64,000 nt of DNA from NCBI GenBank assembly GCA_964467905.1, contig CAYXSY010000005.1, positions 9,800 through 73,799 of the forward strand. The letters run 5' to 3'. The notes beneath the pieces were generated by a model. That model saw nothing but the letters and a program-made list of their open reading frames with translations. It was not told the origin of the DNA and did not search any database. The first letter of the stretch is position 1. Each line of letters begins with the position of its first letter. This document shows positions 8,004 through 50,567 of this stretch, one piece after another. This stretch comes from an uncultured Planctomycetales bacterium. GTDB taxonomy: Bacteria; Omnitrophota; Gorgyraeia; Gygaellales; Profunditerraquicolaceae. A program made the translations under genes and the position numbers.

Positions 8004-9245
8004 ATGAAAAACCTGAAAGATAAAATATCGCTTCTTCCTAATTCGCCGGGAGTCTACATCTTTAAGGATGCAGGGGGTGAGATTATTTATATAGGCAAGG
8101 CAAGATCGCTTAAGAAGAGGGTATCTTCATATTTTAGCCGCCCTTTAGACGCGAAGACACAGCAATTGGTTTCAAAAATAAACGATATTGAATATAAGAT
8201 TACTCCAAGTGAATCCCAGGCGCAGATTCTTGAAGCTTTTCTGATTAAGAACAACCAGCCTAAATATAACATCAGCCTTAAGGACGATAAATCTTTCCCT
8301 TGGGTTAGAATTAGCCGTGAAGATTTTCCTGTTGTCAGTATCGCGCGCAAAAAGAAGCGCGAAGAAGAAAACGCTGTTTATATCGGTCCTTACACCGACG
8401 CTAAGATGTTAAGGCGGGCGATAAAAATCATCCGGCGCATATTCGGGTACCGTTCCTGTAAGAATATGAGCAATAAAATCTGTCTTTACGGCAGGCTTAA
8501 ACTTTGTCCCGCGCCATGCCAGAATAAGATTAGCAAGGAAGAATACGAGAGCATAATAAATAATATCAGGATGTTCCTTGAATATAAATACTCCGCATTG
8601 ATATCAAAGCTTTCGATGAGGATGCGGGAGTTGTCCGGTTTGCATAGATTCGAGGAGGCAGCTAAGGTGCGAGACCAAATTAATGCATTAAGCGTGTTTT
8701 CTAATATAACCGATGAGAGTTGTGCGTTTTCCCAGGTTGAAGACCTTAAGGTTTTATTGCGATTAAAAGTTCTACCTAAGCGTATTGAATGTTTTGATAT
8801 CTCTAATATATCCGGGCAGGAGGCCGTAGGTTCGATGGTGAGTTTTTATAACGGCTCTGCGGATAAAAATAATTACCGCAGGTTCCGCATAAAGTCCGTC
8901 AGCTCTATAGATGATTATGGCATGATACGTGAAGTGGTCAGGCGCAGGTACCTGCGTCTTAAAAACGAAGCCAAGCCTATGCCGGATTTGATTCTTATTG
9001 ATGGAGGCAAGGCCCATCTTTTAGCAGCTTATAAAGAAATTAAAGAGCTTGGCTTAGGAAGCATACCTTTAGCCAGCATTGCTAAGGAGCACGAGCATAT
9101 TTATATTATTGCCAAGGCTAATCCCATTAAATTAAAAGAAGATACTCCAGCTTTGAATCTCATACGTCACATAAGAGATGAGGCGCACAGGTTTGCGGTA
9201 AGTTACCATCATTTATTAAGACGAAAAAAAATAATCGGTAGATAA
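8004..9245 (+). CDS. uvrC: excinuclease ABC subunit C (UvrC), compact form lacking the C-terminal (HhH)2 domain
   Basis: It has a GIY-YIG N-terminus (LPNSPGVYIFKDAGGEIIYIGKARSLKKRVSSYF) and a UVR-like helix (HRFEEAAKVRDQINAL). The RNase-H-like endonuclease domain ends in IRDEAHRFAVSYHH. At 413 aa it is well short of the usual ~600 aa. Confidence 0.8.
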   Translation: MKNLKDKISLLPNSPGVYIFKDAGGEIIYIGKARSLKKRVSSYFSRPLDAKTQQLVSKINDIEYKITPSESQAQILEAFLIKNNQPKYNISLKDDKSFPWVRISREDFPVVSIARKKKREEENAVYIGPYTDAKMLRRAIKIIRRIFGYRSCKNMSNKICLYGRLKLCPAPCQNKISKEEYESIINNIRMFLEYKYSALISKLSMRMRELSGLHRFEEAAKVRDQINALSVFSNITDESCAFSQVEDLKVLLRLKVLPKRIECFDISNISGQEAVGSMVSFYNGSADKNNYRRFRIKSVSSIDDYGMIREVVRRRYLRLKNEAKPMPDLILIDGGKAHLLAAYKEIKELGLGSIPLASIAKEHEHIYIIAKANPIKLKEDTPALNLIRHIRDEAHRFAVSYHHLLRRKKIIGR

Positions 9246-9338
9246 AATAAATCCTAAATCCGAGACTCAAAAAATTAGTTTGGGTTTATGGTTTTGAGTT
9301 TATTTAGGGTTTAGAGTTTAGTGTTTAGAGTTTATAAG
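9246..9338. repeat. intergenic imperfect inverted repeat built from AAAYYCY-type units; contains two copies of TTTAGAGTTTA
   Basis: aaatcctaaatccgagactcaaaa (9249-9272) pairs imperfectly with ttttgagtttatttagggttt (9292-9312). tttagagttta occurs at 9310-9320 and 9324-9334. It shares aatcctaaatccga with the element at 43845. Confidence 0.7.
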
Positions 9339-9608
9339 ATGACAGAATTCACCAAGAGAGTTTATCAAGCAGTCTTAAGCATACCGCTGGGTGAAGTGCG
9401 TACCTATAAGTGGGTGGCTAAAAAAGCCGGCAGCCCCCGGGCTCATCGGGCAGTGGGACAGATATTAAAGAATAACCCATACCCGCTGATTATTCCATGC
9501 CACCGCGTGGTTGAATCTTGTGGTAAGGCAGGCGGCTATAACCGCGGGAGAAATAAGAAAGAAACCCTTCTAAATCTGGAGAGACAAATCAAAGATTTAA
9601 TGCTATAA
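9339..9608 (+). CDS. methylated-DNA-protein-cysteine methyltransferase catalytic/DNA-binding domain protein (Ogt/MGMT C-terminal domain only)
   Basis: The active-site motif IPCHRVV is present, with a helix-turn-helix-like YKWVAKKAGSPRAHRAVGQILKNNP. The start is uncertain. The GTG at 9321 lies inside the repeat, so I prefer the ATG at 9339. Confidence 0.8.
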   Translation: MTEFTKRVYQAVLSIPLGEVRTYKWVAKKAGSPRAHRAVGQILKNNPYPLIIPCHRVVESCGKAGGYNRGRNKKETLLNLERQIKDLML

Positions 9609-9759
9609 TAAACGAATATCCGCAGGCTCTTTAAGCCTAAGCGGCCTCTTTAAATGAAATACTCAAGCGGTTCATGTTTCGCCCGCGCCATAAACGGCGC
9701 AGTCTTTGGCCGCTAAAGTATAAACTTAATATTAATAAACTAAACCGGAGGTAGCAAAA

Positions 9760-10860: not shown

Positions 10861-11962
10861 ATGTTAGAGGAAATCAGCGCAAAACTTTCGTTAATAAATG
10901 AGCGCCTGGATCAGCTCAGAGGTTATCTTTGACATAGATGTCAGTAAGGCTAAGATAGAAGAATTATCTTCTATGATGTCTGATCCGCATTTCTGGGATG
11001 ATGCAACGAATTCGGCAAAGATTGTAAAAGAACTTAAAGTCTTAAAATCCACGGTAGAACCCTGGCAGAGCGCCTTCCAGAAATATAACGAATTAAAAGA
11101 ATTATCCAGTATATTAGAAAGTAGCGACCAGGAGCTATTGTCGGGCATAGATAAGGACTTAAGCTCTCTTGTCGACAGCCTGGGGCGCCTGGAATTCAGA
11201 ACGCTGCTTGGGGATGAACTTGATAAAAATAGCGCAATCTTAAGCATAAATTCCGGAGCAGGGGGTACCGAATCCTGCGACTGGGCGAGTATGCTTTTTA
11301 GGATGTACTCACGTTTTGCAGAGAATCATAATTATAGCTTCAAGGTTATTGATATACTTCCTGGAGAAGAGGCTGGCATAAAGAACGTTACGGCTTTAGT
11401 TGAGGGTGATTATGCTTACGGATATTTAAAGGCGGAGCGCGGAGTGCATAGACTGGTCCGCATATCGCCTTTTGATTCCAATAAACGCAGGCATACTTCT
11501 TTTGCTTCCGTTGATGTCACTCCGGAAGTTGAAGACGATATAGAGCTGAAATTAGAAGAAAAGGACTTGAAGATAGATGTGTACCGCTCTAAAGGCGCAG
11601 GCGGCCAGAGCGTTAATACTACAGATTCTGCGGTCAGGATAACGCATTTACCGACAGGCATTGTTGCCCAGTGTCAGAATGAACGCTCCCAGCATCAAAA
11701 TAAACAGACTGCACTTAAGATCCTGAAGTCAAGGATTTATGAATTAGAGAGGCGCAAGAAAGAAGATTTGCTTAAATCCAGCTCTGAAGATAAGAAGAAA
11801 ATAGAATGGGGCAGTCAGATACGCTCTTATGTAATGCATCCTTACAGTATGGTTAAGGATCATCGTACCGATTGCGAGACGGGCGATGTAAACAAGATAA
11901 TGGACGGCAATTTAGATGATTTTATCGAGGCCTATTTACGCAAAAGCGCCCAAGAAAAGTAG
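10861..11962 (+). CDS. prfB: peptide chain release factor 2 with programmed +1 frameshift: join(10861..10929,10931..11962)
   Basis: Frame-0 MLEEISAKLSLINERLDQLRGYL ends at an in-frame TGA (10930-10932) in the context AGA GGT TAT CTT TGA C. Skipping T10930 continues as DIDVSKAKIEEL in the long ORF. SPF (RISPFDS) and GGQ (GAGGQSVN) motifs are present. Confidence 0.9.
10918..10933 (+). promoter_or_regulatory. RF2 autoregulatory +1 frameshift site (SD-like AGAGG, slippery CTT, TGA C)
   Basis: The sequence agaggttatctttgac matches the canonical RF2 recoding cassette (SD-like element, then CUU UGA C). Confidence 0.85.
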
Positions 11963-17804: not shown

Positions 17805-17948
17805 AGCCTTTATTATATCTTAACTGTAGAGACAAGCAATATTTTTTAAGGTGTTCTCCAGGCTTTAGTTGCGTGAATATGAGGAGTTGATTTAGAGTTT
17901 AGCGTATGTTAAAATTATTTTCATACGAGGTTGACAATAAATATAGCC

Positions 17949-36868: not shown

Positions 36869-37101
36869 GCCAAAAATGCCCCGGACAGGATTCAAGGAAT
36901 ATAAAGGCAGAGAGTATTATTTGTAGTGTATGCGGCTATGAAATAGAAATATTCTCTGATGAGCTAAAGATAAAGTGTCCGAGATGTAAGAGCTTGGCGT
37001 GTCGAGAACTGCTGCCTTCTTGTGTGGCCTGGTGCAAGGCGGCCAAGGATTGTGTGGGTATGGAGAAATGGAAACAATTAAGGAGTTCTGCTACGCTCTA
37101 A
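36865..37101 (+). CDS. small Cys-rich zinc-ribbon protein
   Basis: A 78-aa protein with CSVCG...CPRC plus four further Cys residues. It overlaps the upstream stop by 4 nt. Confidence 0.55.
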   Translation: MSQKCPGQDSRNIKAESIICSVCGYEIEIFSDELKIKCPRCKSLACRELLPSCVAWCKAAKDCVGMEKWKQLRSSATL

Positions 37102-37222
37102 GACATACAAATAATATGGTAGAGCTACGCAGAAACTATTGAATTCCTTCGAAGCCCTACCGTTTGATAGCAAAGTTTAAGGGCGTAGGAGAAATGGAAA
37201 CAGTTAAAAGGAGGATAAAAAT

Positions 37223-42281: not shown

Positions 42282-43147
42282 TGATTATGAGCAGACAAGT
42301 TAAATTTAAAGGCTCTCCTCTTACTTTGGTTGGCAGATATTTAAGCCGGGGAATAGTGGCTCCGGATTTTAAGGTTATATCGGCTGAATTAAAAGAAGTT
42401 TGTTTATCAGAGTTTAAGGATAAAATCAAGATTGTAAACTTTTTCCCTTCCCTTGATACGCCGGTATGCGATTTGCAGGTAAAGGAATTTAATAAGAAAG
42501 CAGCCGGTATTTCTGCGGATATAGTTGTAATCGGAATAAGCAAAGATTTACCTTTTGCCCAGGCAAGATTCTGCCATGAAAACGAAATTAAGAATGAGTT
42601 AGTATTTTCAGATTATAGATATTCTTCCTTTGGCATCAACTACGGAGTTTTAATTAAAGAACTTAATCTTCTCGCACGCGGAGTAGTTATTATCGACAGT
42701 AATAACATTTTAAGATACATCCAAATAGTAGATGAAGTAACGAATGCGGTTAATTATGAGCAAGCACTTAAAGAGCTGGAGGCTGTAATTAGTGCCACAG
42801 CGTCTTTAAGGCCACAAGAAGAGCTGTCTTCTCACTGCAAGCCTTGCGAAGGGCAAGTTGCTTCTTTGCCTCAAGATAAGATCAATAGATTAATCGCCGC
42901 CTACCGCGGTTGGGAACTTATTGACGGTAAAAAAATAGTGAAGGAATTTAAGTTTAAAGATTTTATCGAGGCAAAATATTTTATCGATCTTATTTCGGTT
43001 ATCGCTGAAGAGCAAGGGCATCACCCTACCATAACCGTAATTTATAATAAAGTCAGGCTAACGCTTAGCACTCACGCAGCAGGAGGCCTGACTGATAACG
43101 ATTTTATTATGGCTAAATTAATTGATGGATTAGGATATGCCGGTTAA
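42281..43147 (+). CDS. fusion protein: thiol peroxidase (Tpx, atypical 2-Cys) + pterin-4a-carbinolamine dehydratase (PCD/DCoH)-like domain
   Basis: The Tpx part is FFPSLDTPVCDLQ (peroxidatic Cys) and ARFCHENEI (resolving Cys). After an ~25-aa linker comes HCKPCEG...YRGWELIDGKKIVKEFKFKDFIEAKYFIDLISVIAEEQGHHPTITVIYNKVRLTLSTHAAGGLTDNDFIMA, a typical PCD. Confidence 0.8.
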   Translation: MIMSRQVKFKGSPLTLVGRYLSRGIVAPDFKVISAELKEVCLSEFKDKIKIVNFFPSLDTPVCDLQVKEFNKKAAGISADIVVIGISKDLPFAQARFCHENEIKNELVFSDYRYSSFGINYGVLIKELNLLARGVVIIDSNNILRYIQIVDEVTNAVNYEQALKELEAVISATASLRPQEELSSHCKPCEGQVASLPQDKINRLIAAYRGWELIDGKKIVKEFKFKDFIEAKYFIDLISVIAEEQGHHPTITVIYNKVRLTLSTHAAGGLTDNDFIMAKLIDGLGYAG

Positions 43148-43841
43148 TCTAGAACTAAGAGTAAAAGAGATAATCCAGCGTACTTATAACGTAAAGAGTT
43201 TCCGTTTAGAGCCAGCCGCTAATATAGATTATAAGGCGGGCCAATTCTTAAGCGTTACATTGAGGAAGGATTCTAATCTAAAGCGTTATTTATCAATATC
43301 CAGTTCGCCTACCGAGAAATGCTACATTGAATTCACCAAAAAGCTTACTAACAGCGATTTTTCTAAGTCTTTGAATGAATTAAAAGCCGGGGATACGGTT
43401 GAAGTTCAGTATCCTATGGGTAATTTTACGCTAAAAGATGGTTTTAACAAAATAGCCTTTATTTCCGGAGGTATCGGCATTACTCCTATTCGTAGCATAG
43501 CCAAGTATGTAGTAGATAATAATATGGGCGTTGATATGATTTTAGTTTATGCCAACCGCTCAATTAAGGATATAGTTTTTAAAGATGATTTCGATTATAT
43601 GCAGAAAGCCTATTCTAAATTAAAGGTTTCGCATGTGTTGTGCGAAGCGGAGCCGGGGTTTAAATGCACCGTAGGATTGATTAACGCAGCGATAATCAAG
43701 AATGAAGTAAGCGATTACCAGCAGCGTAAATTCTATCTCTGTGGCCCTCCAGCGATGGTAGACTCGATGAAAAAAATATTGACTGGGGAGTTAGCGTTAG
43801 CGGAAACAAATATTATCACAGAGAATTTTCAGGGGTATTAA
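43137..43841 (+). CDS. ferredoxin-NADP reductase-type FAD/NAD(P)-binding oxidoreductase (no Fe-S domain)
   Basis: The FAD motif is RYLSISSSP and the NAD(P) motif is FISGGIGITP, with a C-terminal YLCGPPAMV. It overlaps the Tpx-PCD gene by 11 nt. Confidence 0.75.
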   Translation: MPVNLELRVKEIIQRTYNVKSFRLEPAANIDYKAGQFLSVTLRKDSNLKRYLSISSSPTEKCYIEFTKKLTNSDFSKSLNELKAGDTVEVQYPMGNFTLKDGFNKIAFISGGIGITPIRSIAKYVVDNNMGVDMILVYANRSIKDIVFKDDFDYMQKAYSKLKVSHVLCEAEPGFKCTVGLINAAIIKNEVSDYQQRKFYLCGPPAMVDSMKKILTGELALAETNIITENFQGY

Positions 43842-43842
43842 T

Positions 43843-43982
43843 GTTAAATCCTAAATCCGAAATTCTAAACTCTAAACAAATCCAAAATTCCAAATTACAA
43901 ATTCCAAACTATAATGTTTGGAACATTGGAATTTAGGATTTAGAATTTGTTTAGGATTTCGATATTAGGATTTAGAGTTTAA
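43843..43982. repeat. ~135-nt imperfect palindrome made of degenerate AAAYYCY heptamer-like units (largest member of the TTTAGAGTTTA element family)
   Basis: The left arm (43846-43909) reads aaatcct aaatccg aaattct aaactct aaacaaatcc aaaattcc aaattac aaattcc aaac. The centre is tataat. The right arm (43916-43980) is its imperfect reverse complement. The element fills the whole gap between two genes. Confidence 0.8.
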
Positions 43983-43993
43983 GGGAGGTAAAT

Positions 43994-45190
43994 ATGTCTG
44001 TTGTTAAAGTATTACCCGGCATTTACTCAGTAGGCGTAGTGGATTGGAACGTACGTAATTTCCACGGGCATACCTATTCTACAAGCAGGGGGACCACCTA
44101 TAACGCTTACCTGATAGTAGACGAGAAAATAGCTTTGGTCGATACCGTCTTAGGCGCGTTTTCTCATGAGCTCATTGATAATATACGTAAGATTGTCCCG
44201 GTCGAGAAAATAGATTATGTTATTGCCAATCACGTAGAAACCGATCATTCTGGCGCGCTGCCTGCAATTATGAAGTTATGCCCTAAAGCTAAGGTAGTCG
44301 GTACTCAAAAATGCAAAGACGGCCTGTATAAACACTATTATGGTAATTGGGATTTTCAGGTAGTAAAGACAGGTGATCAAATAAAACTGGGCAGGCGTAC
44401 TTTGAATTTTATAGAAGCCCCGATGATACATTGGCCGGATAGCATGTTTACTTATTGCCCCCAAGAGCAGCTTTTGATGCCTAATGATGCTTTCGGGCAG
44501 CATTATGCCACAACCGAGCGTTTTGACGATGAGACTGACCATTGTGCGCTTATGGATGAAGCGGCAAAATATTATGCTAACATTTTATGGCCGCTGGGTT
44601 CGGTTATTTTGAGAAAGATAGAAGAAGTACAGAAGATGAATTTAGCGATTAAAATGATAGCGCCCAGTCACGGGATTATCTGGAGGAAAGACCCGGCCAA
44701 GCCTATAAATTCTTATTTATCCTGGGCTAAGAATACCACTTCACCAAAAGTGGTCATAGTCTATGAGACTATGTGGGGCTCAACAGAGAAGATGGCAAGG
44801 GCGATGCTGGATGGTATAACTGATAGCGGAGTTCAGGCAAAACTTTTTGATATCGCGGTATCTGACCGCACCGAGGTTATAAAAGAAATGCTGGATGCTA
44901 AGGGTTTTATATTCGGATCCTCTACTCATGACAATGATATGTTGCCTAATATTGCGTCTTTTCTTGAGCTTGTAAAGGGTTTGCACACCAAAAACAGGCT
45001 TTCTTGTGTTTTTGGTTCTTTTGGATGGGCAGGCGGTGCTGTGGGAGAGATTGAGGGGCTGCTTAAGGAAAGTGGCATAGAGGTAGCGCAGGCAGGATTG
45101 GGCATAAAGTATGTCCCCGATGTTAATGAACTTAAAAGTTGCTATGATTTCGGCAAGAGTTTTGCCGAAAGGATAAAAGGAGGTAAATGA
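43994..45190 (+). CDS. fprA: flavodiiron protein (FprA / rubredoxin:oxygen oxidoreductase type A)
   Basis: A metallo-beta-lactamase-like domain carries NHVETDHSGA. The C-terminal flavodoxin domain reads VVIVYETMWGSTEKMA. Confidence 0.9.
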   Translation: MSVVKVLPGIYSVGVVDWNVRNFHGHTYSTSRGTTYNAYLIVDEKIALVDTVLGAFSHELIDNIRKIVPVEKIDYVIANHVETDHSGALPAIMKLCPKAKVVGTQKCKDGLYKHYYGNWDFQVVKTGDQIKLGRRTLNFIEAPMIHWPDSMFTYCPQEQLLMPNDAFGQHYATTERFDDETDHCALMDEAAKYYANILWPLGSVILRKIEEVQKMNLAIKMIAPSHGIIWRKDPAKPINSYLSWAKNTTSPKVVIVYETMWGSTEKMARAMLDGITDSGVQAKLFDIAVSDRTEVIKEMLDAKGFIFGSSTHDNDMLPNIASFLELVKGLHTKNRLSCVFGSFGWAGGAVGEIEGLLKESGIEVAQAGLGIKYVPDVNELKSCYDFGKSFAERIKGGK

Positions 45191-46043: not shown

Positions 46044-46051
46044 ATGAAGCC

Positions 46052-46078
46052 CGAACTTATTGAGCGAACATAAGTTCG
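46052..46078 (+). terminator. hairpin after the PNPOx-like gene (weak terminator candidate)
   Basis: cgaacttat (46052-46060) pairs with ataagttcg (46070-46078) across a 9-nt loop. No strong T-tract follows. Confidence 0.3.
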
Positions 46079-46151
46079 TTGGCTGAATTTACCTCGCTAT
46101 TTTGGGTTGATAATTTTTCTAAAATGACGGGTTTTATCAAAGGAGGTTTTT

Positions 46152-46874: not shown

Positions 46875-46875
46875 A

Positions 46876-46952
46876 TTACATAATTAGTAATCGGTAATCA
46901 GTAAATAGTAATCCGTAATTCAAAACAAAAATTACCGATTACGAATTACGAA
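46876..46952. repeat. heptamer-built imperfect inverted repeat (AATNNGT units, then complementary ACNNATT units)
   Basis: The left arm reads aattagt aatcggt aatcagt aaatagt aatccgt aattc. The centre is aaaacaaaa. The right arm reads attaccg attacg aattacg aaaacg. The architecture matches the 43843 element but the unit sequence differs. Confidence 0.7.
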
Positions 46953-46957
46953 AACGT

Positions 46958-49341: not shown

Positions 49342-49353
49342 TTTATCCACAGA

Positions 49354-49379
49354 GTAGGGGAGGTTTAAACCTCCCCTAC
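49354..49379. terminator. perfect 26-nt palindrome, bidirectional terminator between convergent genes
   Basis: gtaggggaggttt pairs with aaacctcccctac (49354-49379). It lies between the trpB2 stop (49341) and the GDT1-family stop (49391). Confidence 0.7.
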
Positions 49380-49390
49380 ATTGTTAATAA

Positions 49391-50416: not shown

Positions 50417-50427
50417 ATCTACATAAA

Positions 50428-50522
50428 ATACGGGGAGGTCGTATATACGGCCTGAGAGTTTCGTTTGTTCCAAACGAATTACCCGAAGAACCTGATCTGG
50501 ATAATGCCAGCGGAGGGAGAGG
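50428..50522 (+). promoter_or_regulatory. TPP (THI-box) riboswitch aptamer
   Basis: It contains the conserved CUGAGA (50452-50457) and ACCUGAUCUGGAUAAUGCCAGCG (50490-50512), with a P3 hairpin tttcgtttg/caaacgaa. It lies upstream of a thi4 gene. Confidence 0.9.
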
Positions 50523-50534
50523 AGGTTGAATTAT

Positions 50535-50567
50535 AAGCTCTTATGCGCTAGGCATAAGAGCTTTTTG
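50535..50567 (+). terminator. intrinsic terminator forming the riboswitch expression platform
   Basis: A 12-bp stem pairs aagctcttatgc (50535-50546) with gcataagagctt (50552-50563), followed by ttttg. Confidence 0.8.

Follow-up and report, generated by a model that had tools for sequence, protein, structure and literature searches.

Locus and anatomy of the palindromic element

We analysed a stretch of 64,000 nt from contig CAYXSY010000005.1, hereafter the window, with focus on a palindromic element at 43842-43982 termed W-A; positions without a locus name follow the numbering of the window. The element lies between a gene for an FNR-like FAD/NAD-binding oxidoreductase (43137-43841, + strand), whose TAA stop codon (43839-43841) adjoins it, and the gene of the flavodiiron protein FprA (43994-45190, + strand), assigned from its open reading frame (ORF) and a protein search. 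The ribosome-binding site of fprA, GGGAGG (43983-43988, + strand), begins 1 nt past the element. W-A sits in a co-directional oxidative-stress gene cluster of the order pyruvate:ferredoxin oxidoreductase, rubredoxin, peroxiredoxin-PCD, FNR-like, FprA, superoxide reductase, PNPOx-like, rubrerythrin, glutaredoxin (Grx) and thioredoxin reductase (TrxR), in which the place of rubredoxin is taken from the gene table of the related locus L161.

The gap between the FNR-like and the fprA ORF measures 152 nt. Positions 43842-43982 (141 nt) form one imperfect palindrome reaching from the stop codon to the ribosome-binding site, which bears out the reading of the gap as a single palindrome in an earlier note on this DNA; only the ribosome-binding site and its spacer are left outside. 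The arms (43844-43900 and 43926-43982, 57 nt each) are 77% complementary. A TATAAT sequence, correctly placed at the centre by the same note, occupies 43910-43915 and forms the loop in the predicted fold.

The left outer arm (43844-43877) consists of TT, the units AAATCCT, AAATCCG, AAATTCT and AAACTCT, and AAAC; the left inner arm (43878-43909) continues with AAATCCA, AAATTCC, AAATTAC and AAATTCC, again closed by AAAC, and is a direct repeat of the outer one (32 nt, 78% identity). The right arm mirrors the left and is internally duplicated as a 32-nt direct repeat as well. Its inner part (43916-43948, delimited by sequence, repeat analysis and fold) reads GTTT GGAACAT TGGAATTT AGGATTT AGAATTT, its outer part (43949-43982, delimited by sequence, repeat analysis and alignments) GTTT AGGATTT CGATATT AGGATTT AGAGTTT AA. 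As matching ends, the outer arms correspond to TAAATCCTAAATCCGAAA and TTTAGGATTTA. The units are degenerate AAATYCN heptamers which are broken twice per arm by the 4-nt AAAC. The heptamers described earlier were found again in this way, but not as a plain run of AAAYYCY units. Tandem Repeats Finder calls period 7 on both arms, and in a periodicity scan of the window period 7 was the sole significant period among 4-12.

With a GC content of 25.5% the element is considerably more AT-rich than the window (41%). It carries stop codons in 6/6 frames, in agreement with its earlier description as non-coding. The heptamers might have been kept for these stop codons, forming a three-frame stop array; this candidate was rejected, the stop density being 0.074 vs 0.078 expected from composition. 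A CRISPR array was already discounted in the earlier note and is likewise not seen here, as the units are 7 nt long and contiguous without spacers in contrast to 24-48-nt repeats with unique spacers.

The RNA fold of W-A was predicted at -49.8 kcal/mol for the + strand, compared to -24.6 +/- 3.9 kcal/mol for 200 dinucleotide shuffles (z = -6.4), none of which folded as well (0/200). The opposite strand reaches -48.2 kcal/mol, and the corresponding DNA fold -30.8 kcal/mol (z = -6.4). Ribosome-binding site and start codon of fprA are unpaired in the predicted fold.

Related sequences in the window

A shortened copy, W-B, is located at 9246-9338 between uvrC and an MGMT-like gene. It is matched by the hidden Markov model (HMM) of the family described below with E = 3e-6, shares AAATCCTAAATCC and TTTAGAGTTTAG with W-A, and begins with AAATCCTAAATCCGA and ends with TTTAGTGTTTAGAGTTTA as W-A does. 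A fuller orthologous counterpart of W-B was found in locus L165. Moreover, an exact 12-mer match to TTTAGAGTTTAG, comprising two units only, occurs at 17891-17902 (+ strand); this fragment may be a remnant of a family copy. Both sites had been listed as related before (the second as 17889-17902) and proved to be so. Within the window the unit pattern has 7 matches vs 0.87 expected.

A third site, proposed as related at 46876-46952, has to be judged differently. At 46875-46957, in the gap between the Grx and TrxR genes, there is indeed a heptamer palindrome (W-C) with an architecture like that of W-A and a fold z-score of -3.3. Its unit is GTAATCN, and no homologue was found in 2.0 Mb of sampled Omnitrophota sequence. 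Common descent of W-C and W-A is unsupported: the same architecture with a different unit is confirmed, membership in the family is not.

A dispersed family in Omnitrophota

The best relatives of both FprA and UvrC are all found in metagenome-assembled genomes of Candidatus Omnitrophota. Scans of genomes and metagenomes with FprA yielded a best relative of 78%, closer ones being recovered by the protein search alone. We fetched 160 fprA loci, which were reduced to 149 non-redundant loci amounting to 2.0 Mb including the window; single loci are referred to by L numbers.

Using 43842-43982 as query, nhmmer retrieved full-length matches (~135 nt) in L034 (E = 2e-9), L054, L117, L068 and L135. These copies sit at differing loci, among them the glnA-ANTAR, Grx-TrxR and rubrerythrin-Grx gaps. 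A family HMM built from six copies detects 8 sites in the 2.0 Mb of Omnitrophota loci, including W-B and L164, and matches W-A itself at 43845-43981 with E = 1e-27. An HMM search, which the earlier note had suggested for the genome, thus returned further copies in the sampled Omnitrophota loci; it also detected a full-length copy in L165 and others in viral contigs (see below).

Alignments of the copies (A1-A3) reveal a common layout of ~130-150 nt: four heptamers, AAAC, four heptamers, AAAC, a loop and the mirror image thereof. Irregular units such as GAAGCAC recur across genomes and loci. Simple degeneracy offers no explanation for these shared irregular units, which together with the common layout argue for a discrete family. 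Since whole elements align across genomes, they represent discrete elements rather than microsatellites. Every member folds as a single long hairpin, and where subfamilies differ, the change in one arm has its mirror image in the other (CGAAAC/GTTTCG vs CTAAAC/GTTTAG vs CCAAAT/ATTTGG).

The left outer arm is the most conserved part of the family. Across distant genomes the outer arms are more conserved than nearby genes: those of L054 and L165 are identical in 35/40 positions, with the FprA proteins of both being only ~70% identical to that of the window.

The earlier note had named a condition under which its family interpretation would fail, namely that the genome has no further copies and the similarity merely reflects low-complexity AT-rich composition. 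Full-length homologues with a fixed layout contradict the latter. We therefore confirm that W-A is one copy of a real, dispersed, AT-rich and non-coding palindromic family and not a low-complexity artefact. The element had no match in Rfam 15 at the gathering threshold, and a relaxed search gave only generic models of long-hairpin miRNAs far below threshold. A literature search found no paper on such repeats in Omnitrophota. The family is new, but of a known kind of bacterial hairpin element; from ERIC it is set apart by description.

Filled and empty sites

The comparison of close relatives, also proposed earlier as a check, revealed a difference in occupancy at the FNR-fprA junction. L161 and L162, with 98% DNA identity to the window, both contain the element with one substitution, and its length is unchanged between these strains. 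L164, whose FprA is 88% identical, carries a diverged copy of 111 nt with the same ends. In L163 (~89-91% DNA identity) the element is exactly missing; the junction reads TAC-TAG-GGAGG with no spacer. L163 indeed lacks all three spacers of this operon, i.e. W-A, the Grx-TrxR element W-C and a non-heptamer spacer between the PNPOx-like and rubrerythrin genes. The latter comprises 96 nt in the window (46044-46139) with a hairpin formed by CGAACTTAT...ATAAGTTCG; in L163 the stop codon is directly followed by the ribosome-binding site at this place.

The genome of L163 nevertheless carries a family copy elsewhere, at the uvrC-MGMT site of L165, which is orthologous to 9246-9338 and fuller than W-B. 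Its left 40 nt match W-A in 37/39 positions, and its right 27 nt are identical to the copy of L164. Hence, non-orthologous copies have long near-identical termini in common, and one site is polymorphic. Taken together with the non-orthologous copies in other Omnitrophota and in phages, the empty site in L163 substantiates the REP- or MITE-like (miniature inverted-repeat transposable element) dispersed family which had been considered earlier.

Across the sampled loci the FNR-fprA gap has a median of 17.5 nt and is <=18 nt in 47/93. As this junction spans ~10-18 nt in most Omnitrophota, W-A was added to a formerly tightly coupled gene pair. It would have been gained in an ancestor of the lineage of the window, while one close relative either never had it or lost it precisely. 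The presence of the element in the more distant L164 makes an insertion of old date and a later, precise loss in L163 the simplest history.

The ends of the copies were also inspected for signs of insertion. A TA or TAA duplication fits W-A, W-B, the L165 copy at the W-B site and L034, though their ends are in any event rich in TA; no duplication flanks the copies in L170, L171 and L168.

Copies in viral contigs

An exact 18-mer of the left arm of W-A matched six contigs of IMG/VR. With the HMM built from Omnitrophota, full-length copies were detected in L171 (E = 1e-24), L170 (E = 2e-19) and L168. Copies are dense in two of them: L171 has at least 3 within 13.7 kb, L168 has 3-4 within 10.4 kb. 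L170 and L171 are phage contigs: both encode an SPP1-type portal and L170 an HK97-type capsid. No phage-specific Pfam match was obtained for L168, which is called viral solely because it was found in IMG/VR and resembles L171. The copy in L170 separates a 171-aa ORF from the ribosome-binding site of the major capsid gene. The viral-collection contigs have 53-55% GC, their family copies only 30-35%. The phage copies together with the identity of the L054 and L165 outer arms point to horizontal spread, sequence constraint or both.

In the early mRNA of phage T7, intercistronic RNase III sites are long imperfect hairpins between cistrons and repeated in one genome. The multiple copies of L171 and L168 and the L170 copy before the capsid gene resemble them, the likeness being one of arrangement only. 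The T7 sites are not known to have heptamer periodicity or to belong to a dispersed family common with host chromosomes.

Two additional arrangements were observed in viral contigs. In L168 (5290-5480) and L171 (8700-8900) an inner heptamer array (CAGTCAG/TAATCAG) is nested between AAATCCN arms; the unit TAATCAG is also present in the window, in the element at 46881-46919. L169, a viral contig of 62% GC, contains a non-palindromic half-element, GAAAGCACGAAGCACTAAATYCTAAATYCGAAAC, at 9055-9090, 9600-9640 and 11780-11830, located 8-10 nt before the start codons of 3 genes. These half-elements resemble the TAACTGA repeats that precede start codons in Beggiatoaceae.

Heptamer arrays and hairpins at operon junctions

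Period-7 arrays are not restricted to the family. In the 2.0 Mb we counted 23 of them, 17 being intergenic, compared to 0-2 intergenic arrays at each other period between 4 and 13 and 5 at period 14, a multiple of 7. The units vary by genome (AAATYCN, GTAGGTN, CATAGCT, GTGTAAT, GCAAAAC and others).

The junctions of the operon are normally very short, the Grx-TrxR gap having a median of 8 nt, but in ~10-15% of genomes they are expanded. Among 44 expanded gaps (>=40 nt) there are 21 strong hairpins (z < -3), and in 18 the top periodicity is 7. At the Grx-TrxR junction 13/17 expanded gaps are hairpins vs 2/19 at FNR-fprA (Fisher p = 1e-4; ~150 loci; confounded by phylogeny). TrxR at this junction has no ribosome-binding site of its own, whereas fprA has one. 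This contrast is suggestive of a constraint at the RNA level, albeit confounded by phylogeny and by where insertions survive.

We also considered a transposase flanked by arrays. This candidate was rejected for the sequence examined: the arrays of L075 flank DUF167 and HAD genes, and those of L117 are part of hisH and hisF. In L171 a helix-turn-helix protein is encoded by the small gene that two copies enclose. Matching pairs of ends 0.5-4 kb apart do exist; in L054 one of the ends lies within a gene. The L117 arrays (39-81 and 788-820) are of CCACAGT type, run in frame in hisH/hisF and encode SPQSTVH-like repeats. Their unit closely resembles CCCCAGT and CAACAGT, STRR units of cyanobacteria.

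Purine-rich, non-palindromic arrays of (C/T)AGTAGG or GTAGGTN units are located directly upstream of the fprA ribosome-binding site in L155, L030, L114, L149, L014, L120 and L026. They resemble degenerate copies of the junction between a TAG stop codon and a ribosome-binding site and are unfolded (z >= -1.4).

A GC-rich micro-palindrome of 20 nt, CCTGCCT(G/A)CCGGCAGGCAGG, recurs at some 14 or more loci of Omnitrophota (L165 6439-6458, L006, L008, L012, L021, L030, L054, L086, L132, L149 and others), often exactly at the junction of stop codon and ribosome-binding site. In L165 it is nested in the heptamer element, while the orthologous W-B is without it. It resembles small dispersed repeats that Elhai et al. 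reportedly described in 2008 inside cyanobacterial heptamer arrays.

Finally, two more palindromic intergenic families with conserved ends, TTTTGCGGG...CCCGCAAAA and ATAACTTACG...CGTAAGTTAT, occur in several Omnitrophota genomes. Their sites are L163 6955-7092 and 7940-8020, L037 2510-2697, L149 11934-12029 and L055 2703-2874.

Comparison with known repeats

The closest counterparts by behaviour are the enterobacterial ERIC/IRU elements, imperfect palindromes of 127 bp. They resemble the W-A family in size, in being non-coding and in a palindrome that extends over the entire element; like W-A, whose transcription is presumed, they occupy transcribed operon gaps, are present or absent at orthologous sites and have no established mode of mobilisation. 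ERIC elements are transcribed along with the operon and affect the stability of its mRNA via RNase E-dependent destabilisation (PMC2229807). In contrast, the W-A family is far more AT-rich, has arms with a 7-nt period, belongs to another phylum and is found in phage genomes as well; a TA duplication, as reported for ERIC, is not clearly seen. The likeness is one of "works like" and not of membership; the negative Rfam search bears on ERIC only indirectly, as Rfam is not known to hold an ERIC model.

MITEs such as Correia/NEMIS of Neisseria and RUP of pneumococcus are likewise <200 bp, AT-rich and without ORF, end in inverted repeats, give long stem-loop transcripts and show filled and empty sites. 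RNA of Correia elements is a substrate of RNase III (PMC2229807). Measured against the description of MITEs in the same work (PMC2229807), W-A is small (<200-300 bp), non-coding and A+T-rich, has terminal inverted repeats and a long stem-loop, and is dispersed in copies with filled and empty sites. It departs from Correia and RUP in that its complementarity spans the full arm and not only the termini. Moreover, the examined sequence showed neither a consistent target-site duplication nor an insertion sequence or transposase of matching ends that could be its parent.

REP and REPIN sequences, which are mobilised by RAYT, share with the W-A family the nature of a dispersed extragenic palindrome, a REPIN being a ~100-nt hairpin of two inverted units (PMC3116915). 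No target duplication is expected for them (PMC3116915, PMC3733652). REPs have short GC-rich stems with a GTAG or CGTC head, whereas W-A is AT-rich, heptamer-periodic and lacks such a head. No RAYT gene or Y1 transposase was found in the loci examined, and on these grounds we rejected an assignment of W-A to REP/REPIN.

Heptamer repeats as such are known from Xanthomonas (inverted pairs of (GGGAATC)n), Nostoc (GGGGAYT, STRR), Beggiatoaceae (TAACTGA) and Chloroflexus (GATAGRA). They are intergenic with period 7 like W-A, form convergent pairs able to adopt stem-loops, keep their position between relatives and are transcribed (PMC4692102, PMC4679880, PMC6749651); Xanthomonas GGGAATC arrays comprise 70-75 convergent inverted pairs per genome (PMC4692102). 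These arrays consist of near-identical units in strain-variable copy number, whereas the units of the W-A family are degenerate and fixed in number and order (4+4 per arm). Of the properties of a simple sequence repeat, W-A accordingly displays the tandem 7-nt units, but not near-identical units with slippage-variable copy number. As it is AT-rich, the family also has no G-quadruplex potential.

Interpretation of the W-A family

Based on these comparisons, W-A is probably an ERIC- or MITE-like, non-coding palindromic insertion which is co-transcribed within the operon as a self-contained hairpin. We infer from its position that it is transcribed within a polycistronic oxidative-stress mRNA. 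The RNA would fold on itself from first to last base into an imperfect hairpin with ~57-nt arms, so that the stop codon before it and the ribosome-binding site and start codon after it would stay single-stranded. We propose that the insertion is tolerated since these translation signals are left free by the self-contained fold. By analogy with ERIC and Correia, W-A could act as an exonuclease barrier or as a target of RNase III or RNase E and thus may influence how the operon mRNA is processed or how stable it is. Such an action would make the stability of the prx-fnr segment independent of that of the fprA-sor-rbr-grx-trxR segment. A long RNA hairpin controlling mRNA stability, one of the options of the earlier note, is plausible in view of the position and the predicted fold. 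As a whole, the interpretation given there is partly supported.

Several results weigh against this interpretation. The copy number is modest: the 64 kb of the window contain 2 copies and a fragment, and 8 sites were detected in 2 Mb of sampled loci. The parsimony argument given above suggests a loss in L163 rather than a gain of W-A, and recent mobility at this site is not demonstrated. Among 12 copies there is no consistent target-site duplication or target motif, and no transposase or RAYT-like gene with matching ends is present near arrays or copies in the sequenced loci examined. The L164 copy folds weakly (z = -2.0), indicating that the hairpin is not strictly maintained. Furthermore, no signal specific to RNA was detected: the sense strand is more stable in 11/21 hairpin gaps (p = 0.75), and the complementarity of arms is 0.63 within an element vs 0.64 between elements. 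The latter indicates a palindromic family consensus and not pair-by-pair compensation.

It is rather unlikely that the family is instead kept as a selected cis-acting RNA module, in which the intercistronic hairpin has a job of its own. It might serve as RNase III/E processing site, as 3'-end stabiliser, or preserve translational coupling by holding stop and start in proximity; in a variant, a host or phage protein would read the heptamer-phased motifs, and phages would set ratios of structural proteins in this manner. The conservation of outer arms beyond that of nearby genes in distant genomes is in line with such a module, as are the AT-richness kept in GC-rich phage genomes, the dense copies of L171 and L168, the L170 copy directly before the major capsid ribosome-binding site, the hairpin-rich Grx-TrxR gaps (13/17 vs 2/19) and the subfamily differences mirrored in both arms. 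However, there is neither an asymmetry between sense and antisense stability nor element-specific compensatory evolution, no Rfam family matches, the orthologous L164 copy has decayed, and the close relative L163 does without an element at three junctions of the same operon; the contrast between junctions is subject to the confounding stated above. More doubtful still is the narrower proposal of a sequence-specific functional intercistronic RNA module of Omnitrophota and their phages, rather than selfish DNA alone: a long hairpin with heptamer-phased arms for which there would be a dedicated RNA-binding protein or nuclease as reader. If true, it would set expression ratios of neighbouring cistrons (capsid vs scaffold in phages, fprA vs fnr here) and permit spacers in translationally coupled pairs without loss of coupling. 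Outer-arm conservation, AT-richness in GC-rich phages and the near-exclusive occurrence of hairpin spacers before a gene that lacks its own ribosome-binding site would in that case be marks of function.

A local origin of the element would generate inverted pairs of heptameric arrays by replication slippage and inverted duplication, so that similarity between copies is AT-rich convergence. Heptameric repeats are over-represented in many bacteria, the convergent inverted pairs of Xanthomonas making up their 70-75 of ~185 arrays (PMC4692102), the same Omnitrophota junctions repeatedly carry period-7 arrays whose units are lineage-specific, W-C is without homologue, and the shortened copies look like slippage deletions. 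We nevertheless regard this origin as very improbable for the W-A family, given full-length homology in which unit number and AAAC/GTTT phase breaks are both conserved, the occurrence of GAAGCAC and other irregular units in several genomes and loci, stretches of 27 nt and 37/39 nt that are identical in copies from non-orthologous sites, and no length difference in strains that are 98% identical. A site acting at the DNA level, be it heptamer-spaced binding of nucleoid proteins or regulators, phased A-tract curvature or a cruciform affecting oxidative-stress transcription, appears even less probable. The palindrome is equally stable on both strands and stable also as DNA, its arms keep the family consensus over mutual pairing as a protein-binding motif would, and AT-rich heptad arrays (TTTTGAT, ctx promoter) bind regulators (preprint 10.1101/2021.05.14.444153). 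Yet the location is inside an operon, in the gap between stop codon and ribosome-binding site and not at a promoter, promoter-like matches are at chance level, and the host loci are unrelated (uvrC, glnA, grx, rbr, phage capsid genes). The A-tracts are spaced by 7 bp instead of ~10.5 bp and hence out of helical phase, with normalised vector sums of 0.17 for the left and 0.37 for the right arm, which speaks against the phased bending considered in the earlier note. Least credible to us is a transcription signal, either an AU-rich terminator or attenuator after the FNR-like gene or an internal fprA promoter using the TATAAT. A perfect TATAAT in central position, a promoter-like 9/12 match (TTGGAA-17-TAGAAT, 43918-43946) and arms that are A-rich 5' and T-rich 3' as in a bidirectional terminator would fit. 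However, the TATAAT is not conserved in other family members, promoter- and terminator-like matches in the region equal the shuffled count, and L163 has both genes directly coupled without the element. The + strand also lacks a GC-rich stem followed by a U-run, so that the earlier exclusion of a classical Rho-independent terminator holds.

Regarded as an ERIC- or MITE-like insertion, the W-A family is otherwise ordinary, one more of its kind. Its use lies in the host group: Omnitrophota are an uncultivated and poorly annotated phylum, for which the family HMM provides a marker with which strains can be typed and phages linked to their hosts. The family can further serve as an annotation track for intergenic DNA and explains sporadic spacers of 80-220 nt in compact operons. 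In ~150 orthologous operons, junctions of stop codon and ribosome-binding site were repeatedly colonised by hairpin elements and heptamer arrays. That spacers are almost always hairpins where the downstream gene lacks its own ribosome-binding site leads to a testable hypothesis on which insertions are tolerated.

Other features of the window

Apart from the heptamer elements, the window contains an insertion of 107 nt at 37082-37187, upstream of the gene for a hybrid-cluster protein. It is missing in L161 (3197-3216) at 98% DNA identity, is flanked by a direct duplication of ~20 nt, GGAGAATGGAAACA(A/G)TTAA, and has no heptamer periodicity. A GC-rich palindrome, GTAGGGGAGGTTTAAACCTCCCCTAC, between convergent genes at 49343-49390 (z = -5.9) looks like an ordinary bidirectional terminator. 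The segment 51547-55204 is 97.8% identical to L163 8077-11741, with flanks of 80-91%, which suggests recent recombination or transfer. The sole Rfam match above threshold in the window is a thiamine pyrophosphate (TPP) riboswitch (RF00059, 63.1 bits) at 50421-50535.

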